Shown here: in pieces, positions 1 to 11,016 of the stretch
Layout of the letters: the number at the start of each line of letters is the position of its first letter
Numbering within the stretch: position 1 is the stretch's first letter
From: an uncultured Candidatus Binatia bacterium
GTDB taxonomy: Bacteria; Desulfobacterota; Binatia; Bin18
Reading direction: 5' to 3'
Length of the DNA stretch: 64,000 nt
Assembly (NCBI GenBank): GCA_965200965.1
Contig: OZ241744.1
Coordinates: 2,944,001-3,008,000 of the forward strand
Translations under genes and position numbers: made by a program
The notes under the pieces: generated by a model
Seen by the model: only the letters and a program-made list of their open reading frames with translations
Database searches by the model: none
Told to the model about the DNA's origin: nothing

Positions 1-1797
1 GTTCTCGCCCGCCTTCTTGAACAGCAGGCGTACATCGGCCTCGCGTTCTGGAGAGAGCTGGAGGTCGGCGACGAGCGGCCGGTCAACAATATCGGCGGCG
101 TTGCGGGTATAGACCGGCGCGGTCCAGGCGGGCGGCAGGAGTGCGTCGAGGGCGCGCTTGTACTTGGCACAGGCTTCGCGGTTCACGCCGACCAGGAACG
201 CCTTGTAGCCGAGTGGCGCGACATTCTCCCTGAAGTGCCTGGCGACAAAGGCAGCGACCTTGTCTATGCGGTCATCCGCGGTCAGGAAGGTCCGCAGGCC
301 AACCGCCCGGTCAAGGACGGTGTTGAGTTCGTCAATGTCGCTCACGCCCTCAGTCTCGGCCAGGGCAAAGAACTCGCGATCGAGCCGCTCGGCCGGCATG
401 GTCATGGTGCTCGGGGCCAGGGTGTGGCGGAGCGGCAGGGTTGTTTCGTCTCTGATGGACTCAGCGATGGGGTACTTGTCGAGATATTTCTGGTCGTCGT
501 CCGCACCGAATATCTTGAAGGTGCTCTCGCCCTGCGTGGTCCGGTCAATCGGCGTGCCGGTGAATCCGATGATCGTGGCCTTGGGCACAGCCGCCATCAG
601 GTAGGTGCCCAGCTCTTTGGCGACCGAGCGGTGCGCCTCGTCAATGAACACATAGACGTTGTCGCGGGTGGTGGCGTCTTTCTCCAGACCCTCAAACTTG
701 TGGATCATGGACAGGATCAGGCCACGCTTGTCGGTGCTGAACAGCTCCCGCAGTTCGGCTCTGGAGTTTGCGTGCCACACCGCGATGTCCTGCCGCTGCA
801 TCTCGCCGAGCAGCTTTTCGACCCAGCCCGCGAGCTGGCCTTCGAGTTCCCTGCGGTCCACCACGACCACCACGGTCGGCGTGCGGAACCGGTGGCGGTC
901 TTCCAGGATCAGCCGCGCCGCGGTGAGCAGGGTAAAGGTCTTGCCCGACCCCTGGGTGTGCCAGATCAGCCCGCGCCGCTTTGTCGGGTCGGCGCAGCGT
1001 TCAACGATGCGGTCCACCGCGACGCGCTGGTGCTGGCGCAGCACCGACTTCCGCGTCTCGCCGTCTTCGACGTAGAAGAGAATCCAGTCGCGCAGGGTGC
1101 GCAGGAAAGCGGCCGGCTCGAAGAACGACTGAACGGCAAAGCGGTAGCTCTCCTGCGGCCGTTCCTTCCAACGCGCCATGAAGCGGCGCGAGGCGTTCCA
1201 GGTCACGCCGTACCAGTAGTCAAGGAGATGGGTGACGTTGAAAAGCTGGGCCGCGGCCAGCAGCTCGGGCGTCTCTTTTTCATAGCGCTGCAACTGGGTG
1301 ATACCCCGTTTAATGGCGTCGGCGTCTGTCGGGTTCTTGTGCTCAACAATGGCGGCCGGTACGCCGTTGACAACGAACATCAGGTCTGCACGGTTGCCCT
1401 TGCGGGCCGGGGGCTTGAGCCTCCACTCCCAGCTCACATGCAAGGCATTGGCGGCCGGCGTCTCAAAATCAACGAGCCGGACGGGCCGCTGACGCCGCTC
1501 GGCCTCGTCGTAGCACTGCCGCTCGCCACGCAGCCAGGCGAGCATCTCACGGTTGCCATCTATCGTTGGTGGCAGCGCTTCGAGCTTCTCGATCACGGCG
1601 CGGATAGCGTCCGCGGGCAGCCACGGGTTGAAGCGCCCAAGGGCGGCCTCGACCTCATCGCGCACCAGTGTCCCGGCCTCGCCCCCGCGCTTGCGCAGCG
1701 CGGCATGGGGCGCAAGCGGCGTCCAGCCGACCGCCGCGACGTGGCGGATCATCGGAAACTGGACGCTGGTTGCCTCGGTGATACTGAGGTCGGTCAC
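1..1797 (-). CDS. hsdR: Type I restriction endonuclease subunit R (partial, continues beyond window left edge)
   Basis: Not in ORF track (no stop in window). Manual translation from GTG at 1797 gives nuclease motifs [10 protein letters not shown]...IVEHK and QLQRY, Walker [13 protein letters not shown] box (IDEAHRS) and FTGTP. Start overlaps the upstream stop (GTGA). Confidence 0.95.
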
Positions 1798-1800
1798 GAC
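1568..1800. repeat. 233-bp direct repeat copy A (5' end of intact hsdR)
   Basis: Aligns by eye with 3659-3891, 8 mismatches, no indels. Confidence 0.95.
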
Positions 1801-3485
1801 GAAACTTCCCTGTCGGCCTTCAGCAGGGCGTGAACAAGGTCGGCCCGGCGGAAGGTTGCCGACAGGCGTTGCAGCGTCCGCTCTCTGTCGCTGAACAGCG
1901 GGGCAAGCGCCTCTCCAATCTGTTGCTCGGCCCGCGACACATAGCTGTTCGCCTCGTGTTCGATCAGGTCCCGCGCCTGCCCGAAGTTCCGGTGGTCAAG
2001 CTGCTGGAGCTTAACCTCCATATCTTTCAGGAGATAGCGACCCATGAGCATGGCGATGAAACGCGAACCATAGGCGAGAAAGTCAGGCGCGTCTTGGGGC
2101 GGCCTCTTGCGGCGGTTTTCCGCGTGTCTGAGCAACAGGGCGGCGCTGATCGCTTGTGCTCCGTTCAGGTTTTTCTCAAAGATCGTATCGTACAACGCGC
2201 CGAAACGTTCCCGGCCCCTGAACCTGGCCTGATGCGGACGGTTACGCCAGACCGCCAGGACCGCTTCGGCAATGACTGCACTCGTAAACTCATCAGCCGT
2301 CACCGTCCGGTCCTCACGTTTGGCGCGGTACTTGTAGCCCAAACCGGCAATCGCCTCGGCGAGGTTTTTTTGATGTGGATCGTTGGCTTTCAAATCTCGC
2401 AGATCGACCGGATTCTGGCTGTTGGTGGCGAAGGTAATGGCCTCAACAAGTTCGCTGTCGTCCGGCGGAAGCTCGTATATGCGGACAAGCACTTCCGCCG
2501 CTCCGATTTCTGGTCCGATTTCCGCGTATACCCGCTGAACGGTGCGGGCGGTCTGTACGCCGTTCACGATTTGCAGGTCGTTCACCTGCACGGGCCAATT
2601 GACCCGTTGCAGCGCGTTGTGGCGAAACTGGGAGCAGGTGAGGGTGAGGCCATTGTTATAGAAATAGAAGTTGGCCCGCTGGTCCGGGTCGCGCAACGTG
2701 TCCGCCACCGCTTCGTTCACGCGGTTGCCGGCAAGGCCCAGATAGTGGCGGATATTCCTTTCAAATAATTTATTGTCGTAGGTCGTGGTCAGATGGACGA
2801 GTTCGGCGACGGACATGCGCCCGATCAAGACCCGCCGAAAGTCAAAGGTTTCGACGGTCGCTTGCCCGCTGAGCTTCAACTCGGCGCTGATCGGCTGTCT
2901 GGCCTTCAAGAGTGCGAGGATATCTTCGGGGCCAATATAGCGCCATTCGACCTGCCTGCTGAACTCCTTTTCGGCGTTGTTGATACGTTGCTGCGCTTCC
3001 CCTGTCCACCGCTTCCCATTGTTTGCCGCAACCGCGGTCACGCGCGGAATTGCGCCCCCTTTGACAAACGACCGGATTTCTTCGACCCGCTGCTCGAGTC
3101 GTTGATTCAAACTGACGGTGGTTGTCGGGTCAAAGAGTGTGCCGATTGCGTCAATCATCCTGGCGATTGCGTTTTCGGGGAAGGCTGAGTCTCCGCTGAG
3201 GTCTGTTTTGTATTTTCCCTGGATCAGGATGATGGGGATCTCACCGTTATCGGGCGGATAAAAGTACAGCGCGTCAACCCCGAAATCGTTGCCGCCATCG
3301 ACAATGCCGTCAAACGCCTCCTCGTCGGTCAGGTCGAATGCCGTTTTGGCGACAAGGAACAGGAAGGCTGCGGTGCGTTTCTTGTGCTCGTCGCTTCCTA
3401 GCCGCAGTTCAGCGGCAAAAGTATCGGTGTGTTTCTCGATGATGCCGGAGACCTGCTGGTCAACGATCTGCGTCGCTAGAGACAT
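1794..3485 (-). CDS. AIPR family protein (abortive infection phage resistance)
   Basis: Motifs [47 protein letters not shown]; GGAGGAGG RBS; type I RM context is typical for AIPR. Confidence 0.9.
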
Positions 3486-3658: not shown

Positions 3659-3891
3659 GGTGGCAGCGCTTCGATTTTTTCAATCACGGCGCAGATAGCG
3701 TCCGCGGGCAGCCACGGGTTGAAGCGCCCAAGGGCAGCCTCGACCTCATCGCGCACCAGTGTCCCGGCCTCACCCCCGCGCTTGCGCAGCGCGGCATGGG
3801 GCGCAAGCGGCGTCCAGCCGACCGCCGCGACGTGGCGGATCATCGGAAACTGGACGCTGGTTGCCTCGGTGATGCTGAGGTCGGTCACGAC
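3659..3891 (-). pseudogene. Truncated duplicate of hsdR 5' end (direct repeat copy B)
   Basis: Encodes [19 protein letters not shown]...EALPP, nearly identical to the HsdR N-terminus, then runs into unrelated sequence (track ORF 3532..3909). Confidence 0.9.
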
Positions 3892-3909: not shown

Positions 3910-4512
3910 CTATGAGTTGGCCCGTCTCATTGGTCGGCTCAAGTCGTACTGGCAGCGGCTGCGATCCTCAAAGGCTGCATCAACCAGGGACTTGAGTCTC
4001 CTCACGTTGAGTCTCTTCCAGGGTATGACCGAAATTTTAGCCTCCGGCTTCAGGAAATTGTCGATAAGCCGGTCAGGCATGTAGGGATATCTGCGCTCAT
4101 ACTCCGCCCTGGTGTTGAGCGATGTCCACGAGAAGTCTGGATAGATCTCCTTTTCTGCTTCTCCGTGAGATATCCGAATTTCTTCGTCACCGCTGTATGG
4201 GGTAGGCAGTGTGATAACTAAGATTCCCGACTTCTTATTGACCCGACCATCGTACATGCTTGAATAGATTTCCCAATCAACATGCTTCCTCCGCTTCGTC
4301 TGGGTTCCAACCAAGACAATCGTCACCGTGGAGTCTCTGAGATAATCGTCCCTGATTTTCTCCCGGATGCTCTCATCACTGAGGCTGTCCGAAATGTCGC
4401 CTGTATCGACCGACTGATCGATGAATATGGAGTGTTGCTCCCCCCAATTAACCAGGCTCTCTTTGTACCGCTGATCGTTCTCGTGGTGATAGCTGATGAA
4501 TACCTTATGCAC
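3910..4512 (-). CDS. ThsB-like TIR domain protein (MTH538/DUF1863 type)
   Basis: GTG start after AAGGAGG; HKVFISYHH...IRDDYLRDSTVTIVLVG...RKHVDWEI with the predicted catalytic Glu. Confidence 0.88.
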   Translation of the reverse strand: MHKVFISYHHENDQRYKESLVNWGEQHSIFIDQSVDTGDISDSLSDESIREKIRDDYLRDSTVTIVLVGTQTKRRKHVDWEIYSSMYDGRVNKKSGILVITLPTPYSGDEEIRISHGEAEKEIYPDFSWTSLNTRAEYERRYPYMPDRLIDNFLKPEAKISVIPWKRLNVRRLKSLVDAAFEDRSRCQYDLSRPMRRANS

Positions 4513-5353
4513 TGGGGCCTCCTTTGGATTTGATATCAGTCGGATCACGGAGTATCTGCTTCAGACCCCGCGATACGAGCGTGACCGCCTGGTCGATATG
4601 CGGCGTCCGAGCGAGAAGGGCGTTCTCTTCGTCAGATAGTCCGTTGTGCAGATCGTTCGGCGAGTAGTGCGCAAAGCCCGGGCGACCGTCCCAGGTGCCT
4701 CGAGACCCGGCCCAGGAATCTACAAGCCCGAGCGTTTCCGCGATATCACGAGCACAGCCACCGAAGCCGCCAATCAGGAAGAGCGACTGGCCAGTCTCAA
4801 GCGACAGCAGGGCTTCTTCGGCGATGCCTGGCATCCGTCCTTTGTAGCCCTCTACCCGCCCGCCGAGCACGATACGCGCGTGGGTCTCATCCCGCATAAC
4901 AACCCGCATCGTTGTCAGACCTTCGGCCCACTCATTGGCGTCAGGCTCATGTGTCGGGAGTTTCAGGCGTTGCTCCGGCTCCAGGCGAGCGCCGTCCTGT
5001 GCAAGAAAGATGAGCGCCGCTGAGCTTTCATGGCCAGCCGAAAAGTCAGTAAGGGCGGCCGCCGTCATCCGGATGTGAACGGGCCAAGCCAGGTAGTCGG
5101 TCACGGCAATCTGTCCACCGTGATCGGGGTGGCCCCGATAGCGCGCAAGCAGTTCAAACAACAGTTCAGTAAAGCCATGAGTGCGCAGGTCGCCACCGTA
5201 TGCCAGACATGTTCCTGAAGAGAGCACCTGCAACGCAATCTTGGCCATCGCATATTGCAGGTGCTCGTTGCTCAGTCCGAACACCGCCATATCAGGACTT
5301 TCCGATATCGAAATTGCGACCGTAGGCAGTACCTTGGCGTCTTGAAGTATCAT
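4505..5353 (-). CDS. Stand-alone SLOG superfamily protein (LD/SLOG cluster 2-like)
   Basis: VAISISESPD...LAYGGDLR...ARIVLGGR..GYKGRMPGIAEEA...LIGGFGGCA are SLOG nucleotide-binding motifs; ATG at 5353 after GGAGG overlaps the upstream stop. Confidence 0.8.
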   Translation of the reverse strand: MILQDAKVLPTVAISISESPDMAVFGLSNEHLQYAMAKIALQVLSSGTCLAYGGDLRTHGFTELLFELLARYRGHPDHGGQIAVTDYLAWPVHIRMTAAALTDFSAGHESSAALIFLAQDGARLEPEQRLKLPTHEPDANEWAEGLTTMRVVMRDETHARIVLGGRVEGYKGRMPGIAEEALLSLETGQSLFLIGGFGGCARDIAETLGLVDSWAGSRGTWDGRPGFAHYSPNDLHNGLSDEENALLARTPHIDQAVTLVSRGLKQILRDPTDIKSKGGPSA

Positions 5354-6546
5354 TGGATTTCCTCCAGCCATTTCTTCAGTGTCCGCAGGCGCACATTCGG
5401 TGCAATCTCCTGGAACAAGCGAGCCTCATCAGTGCCTAGGAGCGGTTCAGGATAGACAATTGTCGAATCTCTTCCACCCTGAAGCTCTTGCAACGCAGCT
5501 AACAAGATCAGTTCCGGCGGTCGAGCCGTGAACAGCACCTGAGGGTAGGCGTCTTTGAATCGCTCGACACGGCAGCGCCATAGGTAGGTTCGGAAAACTT
5601 CGGCAAGCAAGCATTCGATGACCGCATCAATCCGGCCCTGCCGATCCTGCTGATCTGGGTTCATCCGAACGATCGGAACATTCCCCATGTACGGGATACC
5701 GCGCTGGTCGGTGTCGCGCAGGCAATCAACGACAATCATCGGTACATGGCGGCGCTTGGCCTCAATGACCTCTCGCCGGCACCACTCGCGGCACGAATAG
5801 GAGTCCGTGTGCAACGCCATGACGATGCTGGTTTCGATCTCATGTAACAGAACCTTTTGGAAGGGCGAGCCAGCCGGGATGTCAAGGACATCGAAAAAAC
5901 TCGCCAAAGCACTGTGCTTATGGAGCCAATTCCGAATCCTCCGCGCAACAGGTTCACCGTCGTTGTCGTGCTTCGAGTGGCTGATGAATACCTGAATTTT
6001 CTCCAGGTAACTTGCAAGCGGTGCCTCTGCTGTTTCAGGTCGGCGGAGCAGGCTGAGGCGATGCCTGAGCATTCGACTGAACTCATAGGTCAGACTGCTG
6101 ACGAGGCGTTGCTCCCGTTCCGGGTGTGATCCTTTCCAACGGTCCCAACGCAATGCCTGCTCCTCAAGGCGAAGATCAAGGCCCTTGGGCTCCATCACAA
6201 CAGGGATGAGCCGAGTGGTGAGATCTCTCGTCTGGGTGTTCTGTGCCAGTTCACGAACATAGTCTGTCCATGCCCGATCGTCGACAAGCGCTGCGTCTAG
6301 CAGAACAACAGCGGTGGTCGTTTCTGCCTCGTCCCACTCGATCGGCAATGGCGCAAGCGCGCCGGCTGGCGCTTGGTTACGGTAGAGAACGCTCAACCCG
6401 GAGTCTCCGGCAACGTTTCGATGGCAGTCTCGCCCGAAACGCCTGCGAAGCAGGTCCGCCACTTGGCCGCCGTTTGCATTTGAGGGGTGCCAGACGACAT
6501 AGAGAGCGAAAAGTGGCCGGGTTGTTGTTTCCATGTCGTCGTTCAT
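5350..6546 (-). CDS. Tandem TIR protein (degenerate N-terminal TIR-like domain plus intact TIR domain)
   Basis: C-terminal TIR VFISHSKHD...FFDVLDI...WCRREVIEAK; N-terminal LYVVWHPS...AVVLLD...RLIPV repeats the strand pattern without the WCxxE motif; ATGA overlap with hsdS stop. Confidence 0.8.
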   Translation of the reverse strand: MNDDMETTTRPLFALYVVWHPSNANGGQVADLLRRRFGRDCHRNVAGDSGLSVLYRNQAPAGALAPLPIEWDEAETTTAVVLLDAALVDDRAWTDYVRELAQNTQTRDLTTRLIPVVMEPKGLDLRLEEQALRWDRWKGSHPEREQRLVSSLTYEFSRMLRHRLSLLRRPETAEAPLASYLEKIQVFISHSKHDNDGEPVARRIRNWLHKHSALASFFDVLDIPAGSPFQKVLLHEIETSIVMALHTDSYSCREWCRREVIEAKRRHVPMIVVDCLRDTDQRGIPYMGNVPIVRMNPDQQDRQGRIDAVIECLLAEVFRTYLWRCRVERFKDAYPQVLFTARPPELILLAALQELQGGRDSTIVYPEPLLGTDEARLFQEIAPNVRLRTLKKWLEEIQ

Positions 6547-7817
6547 GCCTGAAGAGCCGGCGTTACCCCTGACAAATCAAGCTCACCCACTCGAATCTCG
6601 CCCGTCATCAGCTTGTGCAGCAACGCCTTGAACAGGTCGTCCAGCGCCGCCCGTTTCCTGCGGTGCAGGTCAATTTTGCGGTCTATGGCGTCAAGGATGA
6701 TGACGATTTCACGTTGCTCGTCAAGATTGGGAGCAGGCATCAAGAGCTCGCCGAGCCGTGCATGTGAAAGGTTCGGAATCGTCGTGCGGTTGCCGGCACC
6801 TTCATAAATGCCTCGATGAAGAAAGCCTTCCTCAAGCCAGAACATTGCAAATTTTGGGACGATCCGCCCAGGGGCCAGGGGACGCAAGCGGTGTAGGTGG
6901 TTCTGAAATGTGGTGTTTGTGCCCTTAGCCTCATCCTCCCAAACGGCGGCCCGTCCAATTTCTCCTCCCTCGCATACTAATAAGTCTCCTTTCTTCAGGT
7001 CACGGTCTCCAATCGACGCCGGGTCAATGCGCATGTGACTCACCGTGCTTAACTCTATACGTCCCCAATAGACATTGGATGTGCGAAGGAAGGGAACGCC
7101 CTGTCCATTTTCCGACAAATTCCTTTTCAGAGAAAATCCTTGTACAATATCAAAAAGCGTACCGAACGGTGTCGGCTGCCAACTCTCCGGTATTAGGCCG
7201 ATCTCGGTTTCCTTCTGGGCTTCGCCCCGCAGGCCGCGTGTGAACAGCGTGTGCATTGCGGAGCGTTTGAGGTCATGGGCCGCAGCTAATGCGTTGTCCT
7301 GGTTCGCTATTGAACGCCTGACGAAATCGAGCGTACTGGCTATTGAAGACTGCTCCTCGAAAGACGGAACAAAAATATCTATCCGGTTGATCTTTTCACG
7401 GTTCAAGGTATTTCCCTTGATTTGTCGGTCTTGTAGAGCCGTGTAGTCAACCTGTGAGAGAAAATAGCCGAGGTATCTCTGATTGATTCCGCTCTTTGGG
7501 ATAATTGAGATTATCGCTTCGTTGTGACAAGCGTTGATTCCGAGTGTTGCAATGCGTCCTATAGTCAATTTGAAACTCATCAGAAGAGTTCCGGCGGGAA
7601 CGATCTGTCCACGGAACACATTCTCCATTGCTTCGGAGGTAACTGTTTCTTTCGTTTTGGTAATCAGACCGAAGTCATTCATGTCTGATATCGTGACCCA
7701 TGGGACATTTGCATTGCTTCCTTGCCAATAAGCAGAGTTATCCCGAGCTGGAGTACGACCAGCTTTGTAGGTTGCTATGTCTTCAAAACGACATACTGTC
7801 CAGGAATCAGGAATCAT
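6543..7817 (-). CDS. hsdS: Type I RM specificity subunit S
   Basis: Two TRDs separated by P..EEQ..I...LFTRGLRGEAQKETEIGLIPESW; IPDSW/IPESW repeat; C-terminal LLHKLMTGEIRV. Confidence 0.95.
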   Translation of the reverse strand: MIPDSWTVCRFEDIATYKAGRTPARDNSAYWQGSNANVPWVTISDMNDFGLITKTKETVTSEAMENVFRGQIVPAGTLLMSFKLTIGRIATLGINACHNEAIISIIPKSGINQRYLGYFLSQVDYTALQDRQIKGNTLNREKINRIDIFVPSFEEQSSIASTLDFVRRSIANQDNALAAAHDLKRSAMHTLFTRGLRGEAQKETEIGLIPESWQPTPFGTLFDIVQGFSLKRNLSENGQGVPFLRTSNVYWGRIELSTVSHMRIDPASIGDRDLKKGDLLVCEGGEIGRAAVWEDEAKGTNTTFQNHLHRLRPLAPGRIVPKFAMFWLEEGFLHRGIYEGAGNRTTIPNLSHARLGELLMPAPNLDEQREIVIILDAIDRKIDLHRRKRAALDDLFKALLHKLMTGEIRVGELDLSGVTPALQA

Positions 7818-9069
7818 TGTCAGGGGCCCTTTTAGGAATGTTGAACGCCTGGACAGCCAGATAGATATCCCTGCCAGGATCGTTTTTTTGCCGAAATGAG
7901 TATCGGGTATGCGTATCGTTGACTTTGCGCAGTTTGCGCTTGAAATTTGGATGCTGGGGAATAGTTTTCTCTATGCGGTTGAGGACATTAGTGAAATCAG
8001 CATTCTTGCTGAATATCACCAGCGCTGCTTTTGTATCTCTCCATGTAAGATATCCAAGAATCTGCTCTATGGCAGCGTGCATCGCCTTTGGTCCAGACCA
8101 GAACTTGCATTCGGCTATGAACACGTTCCGACCATCTGCACGGATCAGAATGTCTGTCTTGCCCTGTGCGTTGAATGTCTCACCAGTCGCTCCGCCCTCG
8201 TAGAGACCATTTAGGCTCACCAAGATAAGATCTCGTATCTGTTGTTCCTCCAGATGCACAAAGGTACTCGGGTTTCGCTCAATTGATATGGAGAGATTAT
8301 CAATGACCTCTAAAATATCGTTGTATTGAGCATCAGAAAGCTCTGGCTCCGGCTTGAATGTTTCTTTGGGCGATGATGGTACGTCAATTTTGCGTTTCTT
8401 TCGGACTATTGGGATAGCGGCAGTAGCCGCGGTGTTCTCACGTCTCTTGAGCGGTAAACCAATGGCCTTCACCATATCGGCTTGTTCGAGAATCCGCTGC
8501 TTGCGATCTCGTACACACTGCTCGGCTAAAGATTGAACACGCCCATTCCAGCCATTGCAGTCGTTTTTCACATAGTTCAAATTATGTTCAATACGATCTA
8601 TTTCGTTCAGAATTGCTTGACGAGTTTGATGAGCGTCAAGCCTAACATCTTGAAACGAGATTAGAATCTCAGATTCCGATATGCGTCCACGCGGCGGATT
8701 GGATGCAAAGGTTGATGCTTGGAATCTGAAGAAATCTCCGTCTCCCTCAAAGGGAATAGAGATGGTTACATATGACCCGGAAACGTAATGCGGATGGCTT
8801 CGATCAAATATCCCATATTCAAAACGGCCGCTTACGTCAATGCGCGTTTCGCCCTCGCTTTCGATATACCTTTGGTCGGGGAGCAAGCGGGGTGGATCAA
8901 GCGTGAATTTTTCGACAAGGTAGGCAACCAGATCGGATTCACTCGTCGCTAGAATCTTGTTTCGCTCCCAACCCTCCACCTCCTTGATAATCTCAGTCTC
9001 ATAGGCGTCTATCAATGCGCGAAGATCCTTTTCGCGGAAGAGAAGATAGTGTTCTGAACGTGACATCAT
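7807..9069 (-). CDS. Hypothetical protein with C-terminal PD-(D/E)xK nuclease-like domain
   Basis: E..IRD...GETFNAQGKTDILIR...FIAECKFW..AIEQILGY resembles a restriction-endonuclease-fold active site; ATG at 9069 after GGAG; AT-richer than flanks. Confidence 0.65.
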   Translation of the reverse strand: MMSRSEHYLLFREKDLRALIDAYETEIIKEVEGWERNKILATSESDLVAYLVEKFTLDPPRLLPDQRYIESEGETRIDVSGRFEYGIFDRSHPHYVSGSYVTISIPFEGDGDFFRFQASTFASNPPRGRISESEILISFQDVRLDAHQTRQAILNEIDRIEHNLNYVKNDCNGWNGRVQSLAEQCVRDRKQRILEQADMVKAIGLPLKRRENTAATAAIPIVRKKRKIDVPSSPKETFKPEPELSDAQYNDILEVIDNLSISIERNPSTFVHLEEQQIRDLILVSLNGLYEGGATGETFNAQGKTDILIRADGRNVFIAECKFWSGPKAMHAAIEQILGYLTWRDTKAALVIFSKNADFTNVLNRIEKTIPQHPNFKRKLRKVNDTHTRYSFRQKNDPGRDIYLAVQAFNIPKRAPDNDS

Positions 9070-9138
9070 TTTTACTCCATGCCCAGCGTATTGACTATAC
9101 AAGATCGCAGTCCACAAATGAACATTCTTCCGATCTCG

Positions 9139-11016
9139 TCAATTGTTCGGCAGTTCTTGAACAGAAAATTCATCAGACTCAGGCAAATGCAAGAGAGATT
9201 CCATCAGCGTCGCTAGGGAGGCGTTAATTTGGTGCGCTTCCTCATCAAGACGCTGCATTTCGGCCAGGATATCCCTGATTGGGCGCTGGGTTGTGGCGTC
9301 TGTCTGCCCCACCCACCGGCTCGGGCTCAGGTTGTAGTCGGCTGCCGCTGCCTGCTCTCGGGTGATGACGGCAAGCTCGCCGTCAACCGGCTCGCCCTTC
9401 AGGAAGGCCGCGGCCAAGGGCCGAATGTCCTCCTCGGGGATGAAGTTCTTGGGCCGGCCTTTGCGGACGTGGCGGCTGGCGTTCAGCAGCACGATGGTGT
9501 CCTGGCGGGCCGGCGGCTTGCGCTTGGACAGGACCACGATCACGCCGGCGGCACTGGTGTTGTAGAACAGGTTGTCGGGCAGCAGGATCACGCCGTCAAT
9601 CAGGTCACGGTCCACAAACCACTTGCGGATGTTGCGCTCCCGGTCCTCATGCCTGCTGCCCGACCCGCGTGTCACCGCGCCGGTGTCAAGCACAACCGCG
9701 GCCCGCCCACGCTCGTTCAGGCAGGCTAGGCTGTGCTGAAGCCAGGCCCAGTCTCCCTTGCCGCTGGTCACGCCGCCCCGCAGGCGAAAACGGTCAAACG
9801 GGTCGTTGGCGAAGACCTCCGAACCGAAGGGCTGGTTCCACATCGGATTGGCAATCACAATGTCGTGGCTGGCGAGCTGGCCGGAGGCGGTCTTGAACCT
9901 GGGGTTGAGCATGGTGTCGCCGCGGTCGATTGCAACCGTCATGTCGTGGATGATGGCGTTCATGTGGGCCACGGCGTAGCTCTCGGGCTGAAGCTCCTGG
10001 CCGGAGAGCTTGAGCGGCACCCGGCTGATGGGGTCAAGCGCACGCGCCACAAGTTGCAGCTTGACCAGCAGCCCAGCTGAGCCGCAGGCGTAGTCATGAC
10101 AGTCCTCGCCGGGTTTGGGGCGCATCAGGTGGGCCATCAGAAAGCCGACCTCGGTCGGGGTGAAGAACTCGCCGGCACTCTGGCCCGAGCCCTCGGCAAA
10201 CTTGCGCAGCAGGTATTCATACGCCCGCCCCAGAAAATCGGGCTGCACATCGGCCAGGCCGAGCCGGTAGCGCGGATCGGAAAAGGTCTCAACCACCGCG
10301 GTGAGCTTGGCCGGGTTGATCTCACGCTCGCCATTGCGCTCGGCGGCAAAATCAACCAGGTCAATCACGCCCGAAAGCGAAGGATTGTGGCGGACGACCG
10401 CCCGCACCGCCTTGGTCAGATGCTCCCCAATGTCCCTGGGCCGGGTGCTCTGGCCCTGCTCGTCAGCCGGCCACTCATAGCCTTCACGGCCGCTGATCAC
10501 GCCCCAACGCGCTTCCGGCGGCAGGTAGAAGCGCAGCAATTCGTGGTCGCGCTCGGCAATCTCCCTGGCAAGCTCGCGGTCCGCGTACTCCTCGGCCAGC
10601 CGCTCAAGCTCGTCGTCAAAAACGTCCGACAGACGTTTGAGGAAGAGCAGCGGCAGCAGGTAGTCCTTGAACTTGGCGGCGTCTTTCTCCCCCCGGATGG
10701 AGCAGGCCGCGTCCCATAACATCTGCTCCATCGTCTTTGTTGACGCAACCGCAGAACGGCTGTCTTTGCGTCGCCTCCGGCGTGTCACCCGCGCCGCGGC
10801 TTCGGGAGGGGCCGATTCCATTGGGTTGATGCCGGCCTCCGCGGCCAGGGTGGCGATAGCCTCCTGGGCAGCCTTCTGCGGCTTGGTCACGCCGCCCTCC
10901 CAGCGGTTGATGCTGGCGAAAGAGACACCGAGCCGGTCGGCAAGCTGTTCCTGGCTGAGATCAAGGCTGGCGCGCAGGGCGCGCAGGGTAGCCGGTATGG
11001 CGCGTGAATCTGTCAT
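9139..11016 (-). CDS. hsdM: Type I RM methyltransferase subunit M with N-terminal XRE-type HTH fusion
   Basis: [23 protein letters not shown] (HTH), [24 protein letters not shown] (SAM binding), NPMW catalytic motif; ATG at 11016 after AGAGG. Confidence 0.93.

Follow-up and report, generated by a model that had tools for sequence, protein, structure and literature searches.

Within a 64,000-nucleotide window from an uncultured Candidatus Binatia bacterium (GenBank assembly GCA_965200965.1, contig OZ241744.1, positions 2,944,001 to 3,008,000), three overlapping minus-strand genes (3910..6546 of the window) encode a protein with two TIR domains, here named TT, a stand-alone SLOG protein and a ThsB-type TIR protein. 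It is very probable that this trio serves an anti-phage role. On balance, it would represent a Thoeris-type anti-phage signalling system, the effector of which is a split protein encoded by the SLOG and TT genes.

In the proposed mechanism, ThsB would sense the phage and turn NAD+ into an ADP-ribose-type signal, as suggested by knowledge of its family. The signal would then be bound by the SLOG pocket, which is predicted from fold and conserved residues. According to a complex model, SLOG would sit on the dead TIR and the C-domain of TT, so that the dead TIR may be regarded as a docking and relay module. Finally, in the least certain step, the signal would trigger self-association of the central TIRs, which would drain NAD+ and abort infection. 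This would be the logic of type I Thoeris with a TIR replacing SIR2, and the families employed would be sisters of those in the type III ThcB4-ThcA core. That TT is the NAD+-draining output appears fairly likely. A first-pass annotation of the window had already proposed, as one option, that the signal is perceived by SLOG, which then switches on the double-TIR protein as an NADase, a prediction which gained support from the constant coupling of the two genes, their frequent fusion, the complex model and the fold matches described below.

TT and SLOG as one unit

The three open reading frames (ORFs) were found on the minus strand where the annotation had placed them. In the predicted split effector, TT (5350..6546, 398 amino acids) would supply the enzyme and SLOG (4505..5353, 282 amino acids) the receptor, the SLOG start having been corrected to 5353, where an ATGA overlap joins it to the TT stop. 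The gene for ThsB (3910..4512, 200 amino acids), the predicted phage sensor and signal maker, was likewise given a corrected start, a GTG at 4512 that lies within the end of SLOG behind AAAGGAGG. The guanine-cytosine contents of the trio are 0.57, 0.59 and 0.51, compared with 0.615 for the genome.

Related loci were gathered via SLOG, and comprised 3 from GTDB (where contigs were scanned with a single protein query), 10 from relatives, 11 from plasmids and 80 from metagenome contigs, the last biased to the close, split clade; locus L017, which duplicates L001, was excluded. These 104 loci were reduced to 83 at 90% identity, and 54 of them extend for 1.5 kb on both sides. TT lies directly upstream of SLOG, or is fused to it, in all 79 non-redundant loci with at least 300 bp of upstream sequence, the other four of the 83 having too little upstream DNA for this count. 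A few copies of the pair are disrupted by frameshifts or insertion sequence (IS) elements. The same 11 plasmids match TT and SLOG side by side in searches from either protein. Furthermore, TT-SLOG fusions of about 680 amino acids make up 36 of the best 150 distant TT representatives. Split genes are carried, for instance, by a Pseudomonas veronii plasmid (LT599585.1), and a fused gene by Priestia megaterium (NZ_CP071467.1). Fused and split states require 13 changes on the TT tree versus at least 23 in shuffles, indicating several switches between the two states.

The modelled TT-SLOG complex reached a score of 0.88, whereas none of the three controls exceeded 0.00, with contacts agreeing to at least 87% and a predicted local distance difference test score (pLDDT) of the partner of at least 87; the mark applied was reached by 116 of 157 solved pairs and by 2 of 215 mismatched pairs. 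The predicted interface involves residues 8-74 and 368-395 of TT and residues 23-46, 71-77, 214-216 and 246-265 of SLOG, and the contacts listed include neither the catalytic TIR nor the residues of the putative pocket. From this model, formation of a TT-SLOG complex via the dead TIR is predicted with high confidence.

The TT family counts 1,058 representatives at E 1e-10 and reaches plasmids of five phyla. The TT-SLOG family is present in 16 of 5,426 complete Escherichia coli genomes, the inspected record of which gives no system name, and neither PADLOC nor NCBIfam calls TT-SLOG as a system. Annotated phages searched with the representative P0122 yielded no match. In E. coli NZ_CP031653.1 (L128:7287-17353), an island holds genes for a membrane protein, two ThsB, TT and SLOG, which RefSeq leaves without a system name, and this module faces a cluster with thymidylate synthase, nucleotide kinase, ThsB and Nmad2-like genes.

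The domains of TT

Three alpha/beta domains were resolved in the AlphaFold2 model of TT, built from a 124-row alignment (pLDDT 95, predicted template modelling score 0.93). The central domain (aa 183-320) is a catalytic-type TIR with S189, W255, C256 and E259; it matches Pfam TIR_2 at aa 186-277 (E 6e-13), and the WCRRE motif corresponds to W255-E259. F187, S189 and C256 are invariant and E259 is kept in 123 of 124 rows. Among the best 1,000 Foldseek chains, its best structural match is the TIR of SARM1 (Z 17.3, root-mean-square deviation (rmsd) 2.2, 125 aligned), followed by SPARTA TIR-APAZ (Z 16.7).

The N-terminal domain (about aa 8-170) is an alternation of strands and helices in the model. 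In hhalign, the first 165 amino acids of TT align with the central TIR at E 3e-4 and a probability of 39% (123 columns), W93 pairing with W255 and Val97 taking the position of the catalytic Glu, where V, L or I occurs in 107 of 124 rows. Given this E value, support for a degenerate TIR is modest. Thus, in the earlier description of a double TIR with a degenerate N-terminal and an intact WCRRE domain, the latter is well founded and the former modestly so. The small alpha/beta C-domain (aa 335-398) bears PPEL and YPxP motifs with conserved P344, E345, P366 and E374, and is without an assigned fold. No close relative of TT or SLOG was found by sequence among solved structures. In several representatives (P0190, P0214, P0229 and P0169), TT is fused downstream of a calcineurin-like phosphoesterase or a cNMP-binding domain.

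SLOG pocket and ThsB

As described in the annotation, SLOG is a stand-alone protein, matching the Pfam family LD_cluster2 (PF18163) at E 5e-68. Its model (pLDDT 91) has the SLOG domain of BcThsA with 3'cADPR (3' cyclic ADP-ribose) as best fold match (Z 16.0, rmsd 3.4, 184 aligned), followed by other ThsA chains, TM1055, Moco carriers, TRPM2, DprA (12.4) and LOG (12.3). Across 59 sequences, R150, G176 and E180 are invariant and S15 and S17 are near-invariant. BcThsA has been described as contacting 3'cADPR through S290, R371, G399 and E403 (10.1101/2022.05.07.491051). The spacing from G to E is four residues in both proteins and that from R to G is 26 versus 28, while S17 pairs with S290 by the 8-to-281 offset of the structural match. 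These conserved residues may therefore be equivalent to those of the ThsA pocket, although the sequence search of solved structures did not align ThsA to SLOG. It is likely that SLOG provides a pocket for an ADP-ribose-derived signal.

ThsB matches ThsB_TIR (PF08937) at E 8e-23, and Glu81 of its VDWEI motif, already pointed out as a mark of a ThsB-like TIR, is kept in 77 of 77 rows.

Neighbouring genes and the search for a separate effector

Among 428 neighbouring ORFs of the 54 loci, 224 were scanned, namely cluster representatives, singletons of at least 110 amino acids within 3 kb and a few extras, and another scan covered 55 proteins from these loci; for multi-domain proteins five families each were considered, and spurious ORFs dilute the list. 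Among the matches listed, a caspase (PF00656; L117), a TIR-CHAT-TPR protein (L093) and SIR2_2 (L047) each occur near one of 54 loci, on the opposite strand, and Macro occurs near none. Throughout the genome, caspase PF00656 gave no match (its control was positive in 1 of 14), SIR2_2 gave two matches at a great distance from the window, and searches with ThsA_Macro and STALD gave no match, their controls being equally silent. The view of the window as free of SIR2 and caspase genes thus holds, as does that of a variant without a known effector. Absence of a separate SIR2, Macro or caspase effector is the normal state of the TT-SLOG family. The suggestion that the trio is effector-less by truncation has to be abandoned, the TT-SLOG pair itself being the likely effector. 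In 14 of 54 loci, the pair is accompanied in its gene chain by TIR genes alone or by no other gene. Of the 54 loci, 47 have a ThsB-profile match no more than 4 kb away, and in 35 this distance is at most 400 bp. Also common beside TT-SLOG are TIR proteins with WD40, TPR, pentapeptide, FGE, DUF1883 or receiver domains.

Several points weigh against a split effector of TT and SLOG. The nearness in fold of the central TIR to SARM1 and SPARTA is no proof of function, and the tryptophan W255 of its WxxxE motif, a residue tied to cyclising, signal-making TIRs (10.1101/2022.05.07.491051), is kept in 118 of 124 rows. The match between the SLOG and ThsA pockets is one of spacing, not of residue-level alignment. 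The complex test is often passed by the two halves of a split gene, and what it adds here is mainly the interface. ThsB is missing within 4 kb in 7 of 54 loci. Candidates for a second effector do exist: patatin is found in 5 loci (in one of them fused to SLOG), unlabelled genes with at least two predicted membrane helices are chained in 3, and Nmad2, MazG and UDG occur in 14, 15 and 13, respectively. Moreover, the neighbour scans were limited to the 224 selected ORFs and, for multi-domain proteins, to five families each.

Some of these points would be accommodated if TT-SLOG were a relay or amplifier, in which a first TIR signal on SLOG makes TT a cyclase and a second signal serves a variable or distant effector, such as patatin or a small membrane protein. 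This main rival, which seems unlikely, draws on the kept tryptophan, on patatin beside or fused to the module (the five loci and P0235), on the metallophosphoesterase and cNMP-binding fusions of TT and on the many kinds of TIR protein that adjoin the module. Nevertheless, no partner effector is common to most loci, the 14 chains mentioned above hold TIR genes only or nothing besides the pair, and no known Thoeris effector was found in the genome, where the controls of two of the searches were silent. A comparably doubtful idea is that TT-SLOG acts as a hub that reads many unrelated TIR sensors (ThsB, TIR-WD40, TIR-TPR and TIR-pentapeptide) and responds via its dead TIR, which would turn on the second TIR to make a new messenger, and that this is the hidden mechanism of type III; no description of a two-tier TIR cascade in bacteria was found in the papers searched.

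Still less probably, TT would be both phage sensor and toxic or signalling enzyme, with SLOG as an inhibitor or a signal-degrading threshold enzyme and ThsB, a component of other modules, riding along. The seven loci without nearby ThsB would suit this arrangement, as would the frequent place of ThsB at the head of an Nmad2-MazG-UDG module and the proposal that SLOG domains are glycosidases as well as sensors (PMC9503650). However, the ThsB gene of the window overlaps the stop of SLOG, in 35 of 54 loci the distance is no more than 400 bp, SLOG is nearer to the receptor SLOG of ThsA than to LOG hydrolases, and frequent fusion suits a receptor-effector unit at least as well.

The patatin proteins (L020, L036, L091, L098, L103 and P0235) measure about 770-890 amino acids with several predicted membrane helices, and four of these five loci are without ThsB. 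The ThsB-Nmad2-MazG_C-UDG module recurs by TT-SLOG in 14-15 of 54 loci (e.g., L024, L053, L061, L068, L096 and L117), sometimes together with a 5-hydroxymethyldeoxyuridine kinase-like gene. At a separate site of the host genome (G000:C1:1879057-1882717), a UDG-like gene, a long ORF and ThsB genes stand in a row. The scanned representatives of this module gave no PADLOC match, and no publication on it was found; possibly it is a nucleotide-modification sensor for the same effector, or a separate system.

Passenger genes and the hsd site

The minus-strand order of the locus is HTH-hsdM (9139..11016), PDC-S54 (7807..9069), hsdS (6543..7817), TT, SLOG, ThsB, an hsdR stub (3659..3891), AIPR (1794..3485) and hsdR (from 1797 leftwards), where hsdM, hsdS and hsdR form the context of a type I restriction-modification (RM) operon. 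An ATGA overlap also joins hsdS and TT. The trio had been placed between hsdS and hsdR; the position is confirmed, but hsdR does not flank it directly, as the stub and the AIPR gene intervene. The hsdM gene carries an N-terminal HTH_3 domain, as in L002, L019 and L105.

Of the 54 loci, none has PDC-S54, which encodes a nuclease-like PADLOC candidate (E 5e-147), one has the AIPR/AbiU-like gene and four are flanked by both hsdS and hsdR. On these counts, PDC-S54 and AIPR are read as passengers; together with the hsd site, they are passengers of the trio, and the annotation's link between trio and hsd loci does not extend beyond the four. In sponge-metagenome runs X3 and X5, both of one study, contigs carry a nearly identical trio but lack about 7274-9311 and have a different sequence in part of hsdS. 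The trio would here ride a type I RM operon as an exchangeable cassette. Between strains, the hsdS recognition region and PDC-S54 are swapped or absent (window 6698-9311), marking an exchange hotspot, and the trio differs at very few sites, AIPR at many.

On the same strand and with overlapping junctions, the PDC-S54 protein, AIPR or an RM enzyme might be thought to receive the signal, as the annotation had suggested for the nuclease-like 9069-7807 product or AIPR, and AIPR also follows the trio in L001 of the same genus. This is very improbable, since the co-occurrence counts and the strains that keep the trio without the 9069-7807 gene largely refute it.

The hsdR stub, inside ORF 3909-3532, is a copy of the hsdR 5' end of 233 bp with 97% identity (225/233, blastn, from which its coordinates are taken), and is read as an insertion scar right after ThsB, not as an effector. 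Such a scar could mean that a Thoeris of type IV or type I was truncated and lost its effector at the stub, in which case close homologs would nearly always carry a caspase or other effector there. What follows ThsB is AIPR in L001, a 117-aa ORF without Pfam match and then hsdR in L002, and hsdR in L105. Besides, caspase and SIR2 lie near one locus each, on the opposite strand, and type IV, which the annotation wrongly described as TIRs, SLOG and caspase, is presented as a two-gene TIR and caspase operon without SLOG (10.1101/2024.10.24.620036). The neighbourhood counts refute the truncation, the likelihood of which is negligible.

The 233-bp direct duplication (3659-3891 and 1568-1800) brackets the AIPR gene and hints at how cassettes enter the hsd operon; an assembly artefact was discarded as its origin, since contigs of other runs bridge the stub junctions. 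In L001 (2029-4799), a short prokaryotic Argonaute and a truncated Argonaute-associated SIR2 lie between hsdS and TT, the SIR2 ORF ending in pieces of AIPR and hsdS sequence.

Comparison with known Thoeris types and TIR NADases

Type III Thoeris has been described as several TIRs with a SLOG effector, now renamed ThsD; a preprint of December 2025 describes its signalling as uncharacterised and also holds that some TIRs in unverified Thoeris types may be NAD-depleting effectors (10.64898/2025.12.03.692087). According to a review, the type III SLOG is distinct from STALD (PMC13276650). Type III was compared here via the NCBIfam models NF058525 (ThcA) and NF058526 (ThcB4) and citing texts. Like type III, the trio has multiple TIR genes and a stand-alone SLOG without SIR2, Macro or caspase. 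Unlike type III, it has one ThsB, and its SLOG belongs to LD_cluster2 (282 aa), whereas ThcA belongs to LD_cluster3 (203 aa).

At E 0.01, the window SLOG had no match to ThcA (cut-off 110), and two of its relatives scored 19 and 23 bits, compared with 151-160 bits for true ThcA; TT scored 42.3 bits on ThcB4, below the cut-off of 220 and over aa 185-273 only. A true type III core in genome G489 scored 241.6 bits for ThcB4 and 151 bits for ThcA, with the gene order of the trio. L132, passing both cut-offs, has a 380-aa TIR protein directly before SLOG, and a ThcB4-SLOG fusion (P0470) exists in type III. A 107-row ThcB4 profile aligned collinearly with TT residues 74-382 (273 columns, probability 96.4, E 1.1e-9). 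Compared domain by domain, the central TIRs alone give a significant alignment (E is 0.018 for the N-domains and 0.037 for the C-domains), and ThcA aligns weakly with the trio SLOG (149 columns, E 0.0026). The core architecture X-TIR-Y followed by SLOG is common to both, the flanking domains being weakly alignable. Since the trio misses the NCBIfam cut-offs yet shares ThcB4-ThcA order and collinearity, it is best filed as a sister variant of type III that has no name so far, since the available models do not make it a member. The label of an undescribed system was overstated, because type III already names several TIRs with a SLOG effector in the same order.

The Pfam family LD_cluster2 already exists, and the SLOG clusters reportedly stem from a 2015 paper by Burroughs. 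No publication on LD_cluster2 or a TIR-TIR-SLOG system was found in a search outside which the original type III description and the 2015 paper fall, so an earlier description there is possible. Searches for ThcA, ThcB4 and STALD gave no match in 201-401 genomes from the phylum of the host, their controls silent, and type III was reached only via G489. This genome holds an LD_cluster2 system (L003) and two type III ThcA loci (L131 and L132), one of them broken up by IS elements.

If TT and SLOG together make up a single split effector, it would no longer be puzzling, for either sister family, that the effector seems to have no killing domain. TIR would then join the effectors controlled by a signal that a TIR produces, a dead TIR serving as adaptor. 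TT E259, SLOG R150/E180 and ThsB E81 would then offer three precise mutational handles, making the type III question directly testable.

Like type I Thoeris, the trio combines a ThsB-family TIR (PF08937, with its catalytic Glu) with a SLOG joined to an NAD-cleaving-type domain, and the ThsA SLOG is the best fold match. Unlike type I, it is without a SIR2-STALD ThsA, the SIR2_2 matches of the genome lying elsewhere; its SLOG is LD_cluster2 rather than STALD, and its predicted effector consists of two proteins and includes a dead TIR. The Macro effector of type II is absent from the trio proteins, and the genome search with ThsA_Macro was blank with a silent control. With type IV, only the ThsB-like TIR signalling is shared, as SLOG is present and the genome gave no match to caspase PF00656. 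SPARTA TIR-APAZ, SARM1 and Cat1 provide the best structural and profile matches of the TT central TIR; unlike them, TT is predicted to be gated by SLOG via a dead TIR, not by Argonaute, ARM or CARF. TIR NADases are reported to need TIR self-association (10.64898/2026.03.01.708072), and pairs of active and inactive TIRs have been described in other systems (10.64898/2026.10.19.760177). On the best reading, the mechanism of the trio resembles those of type III and type I.

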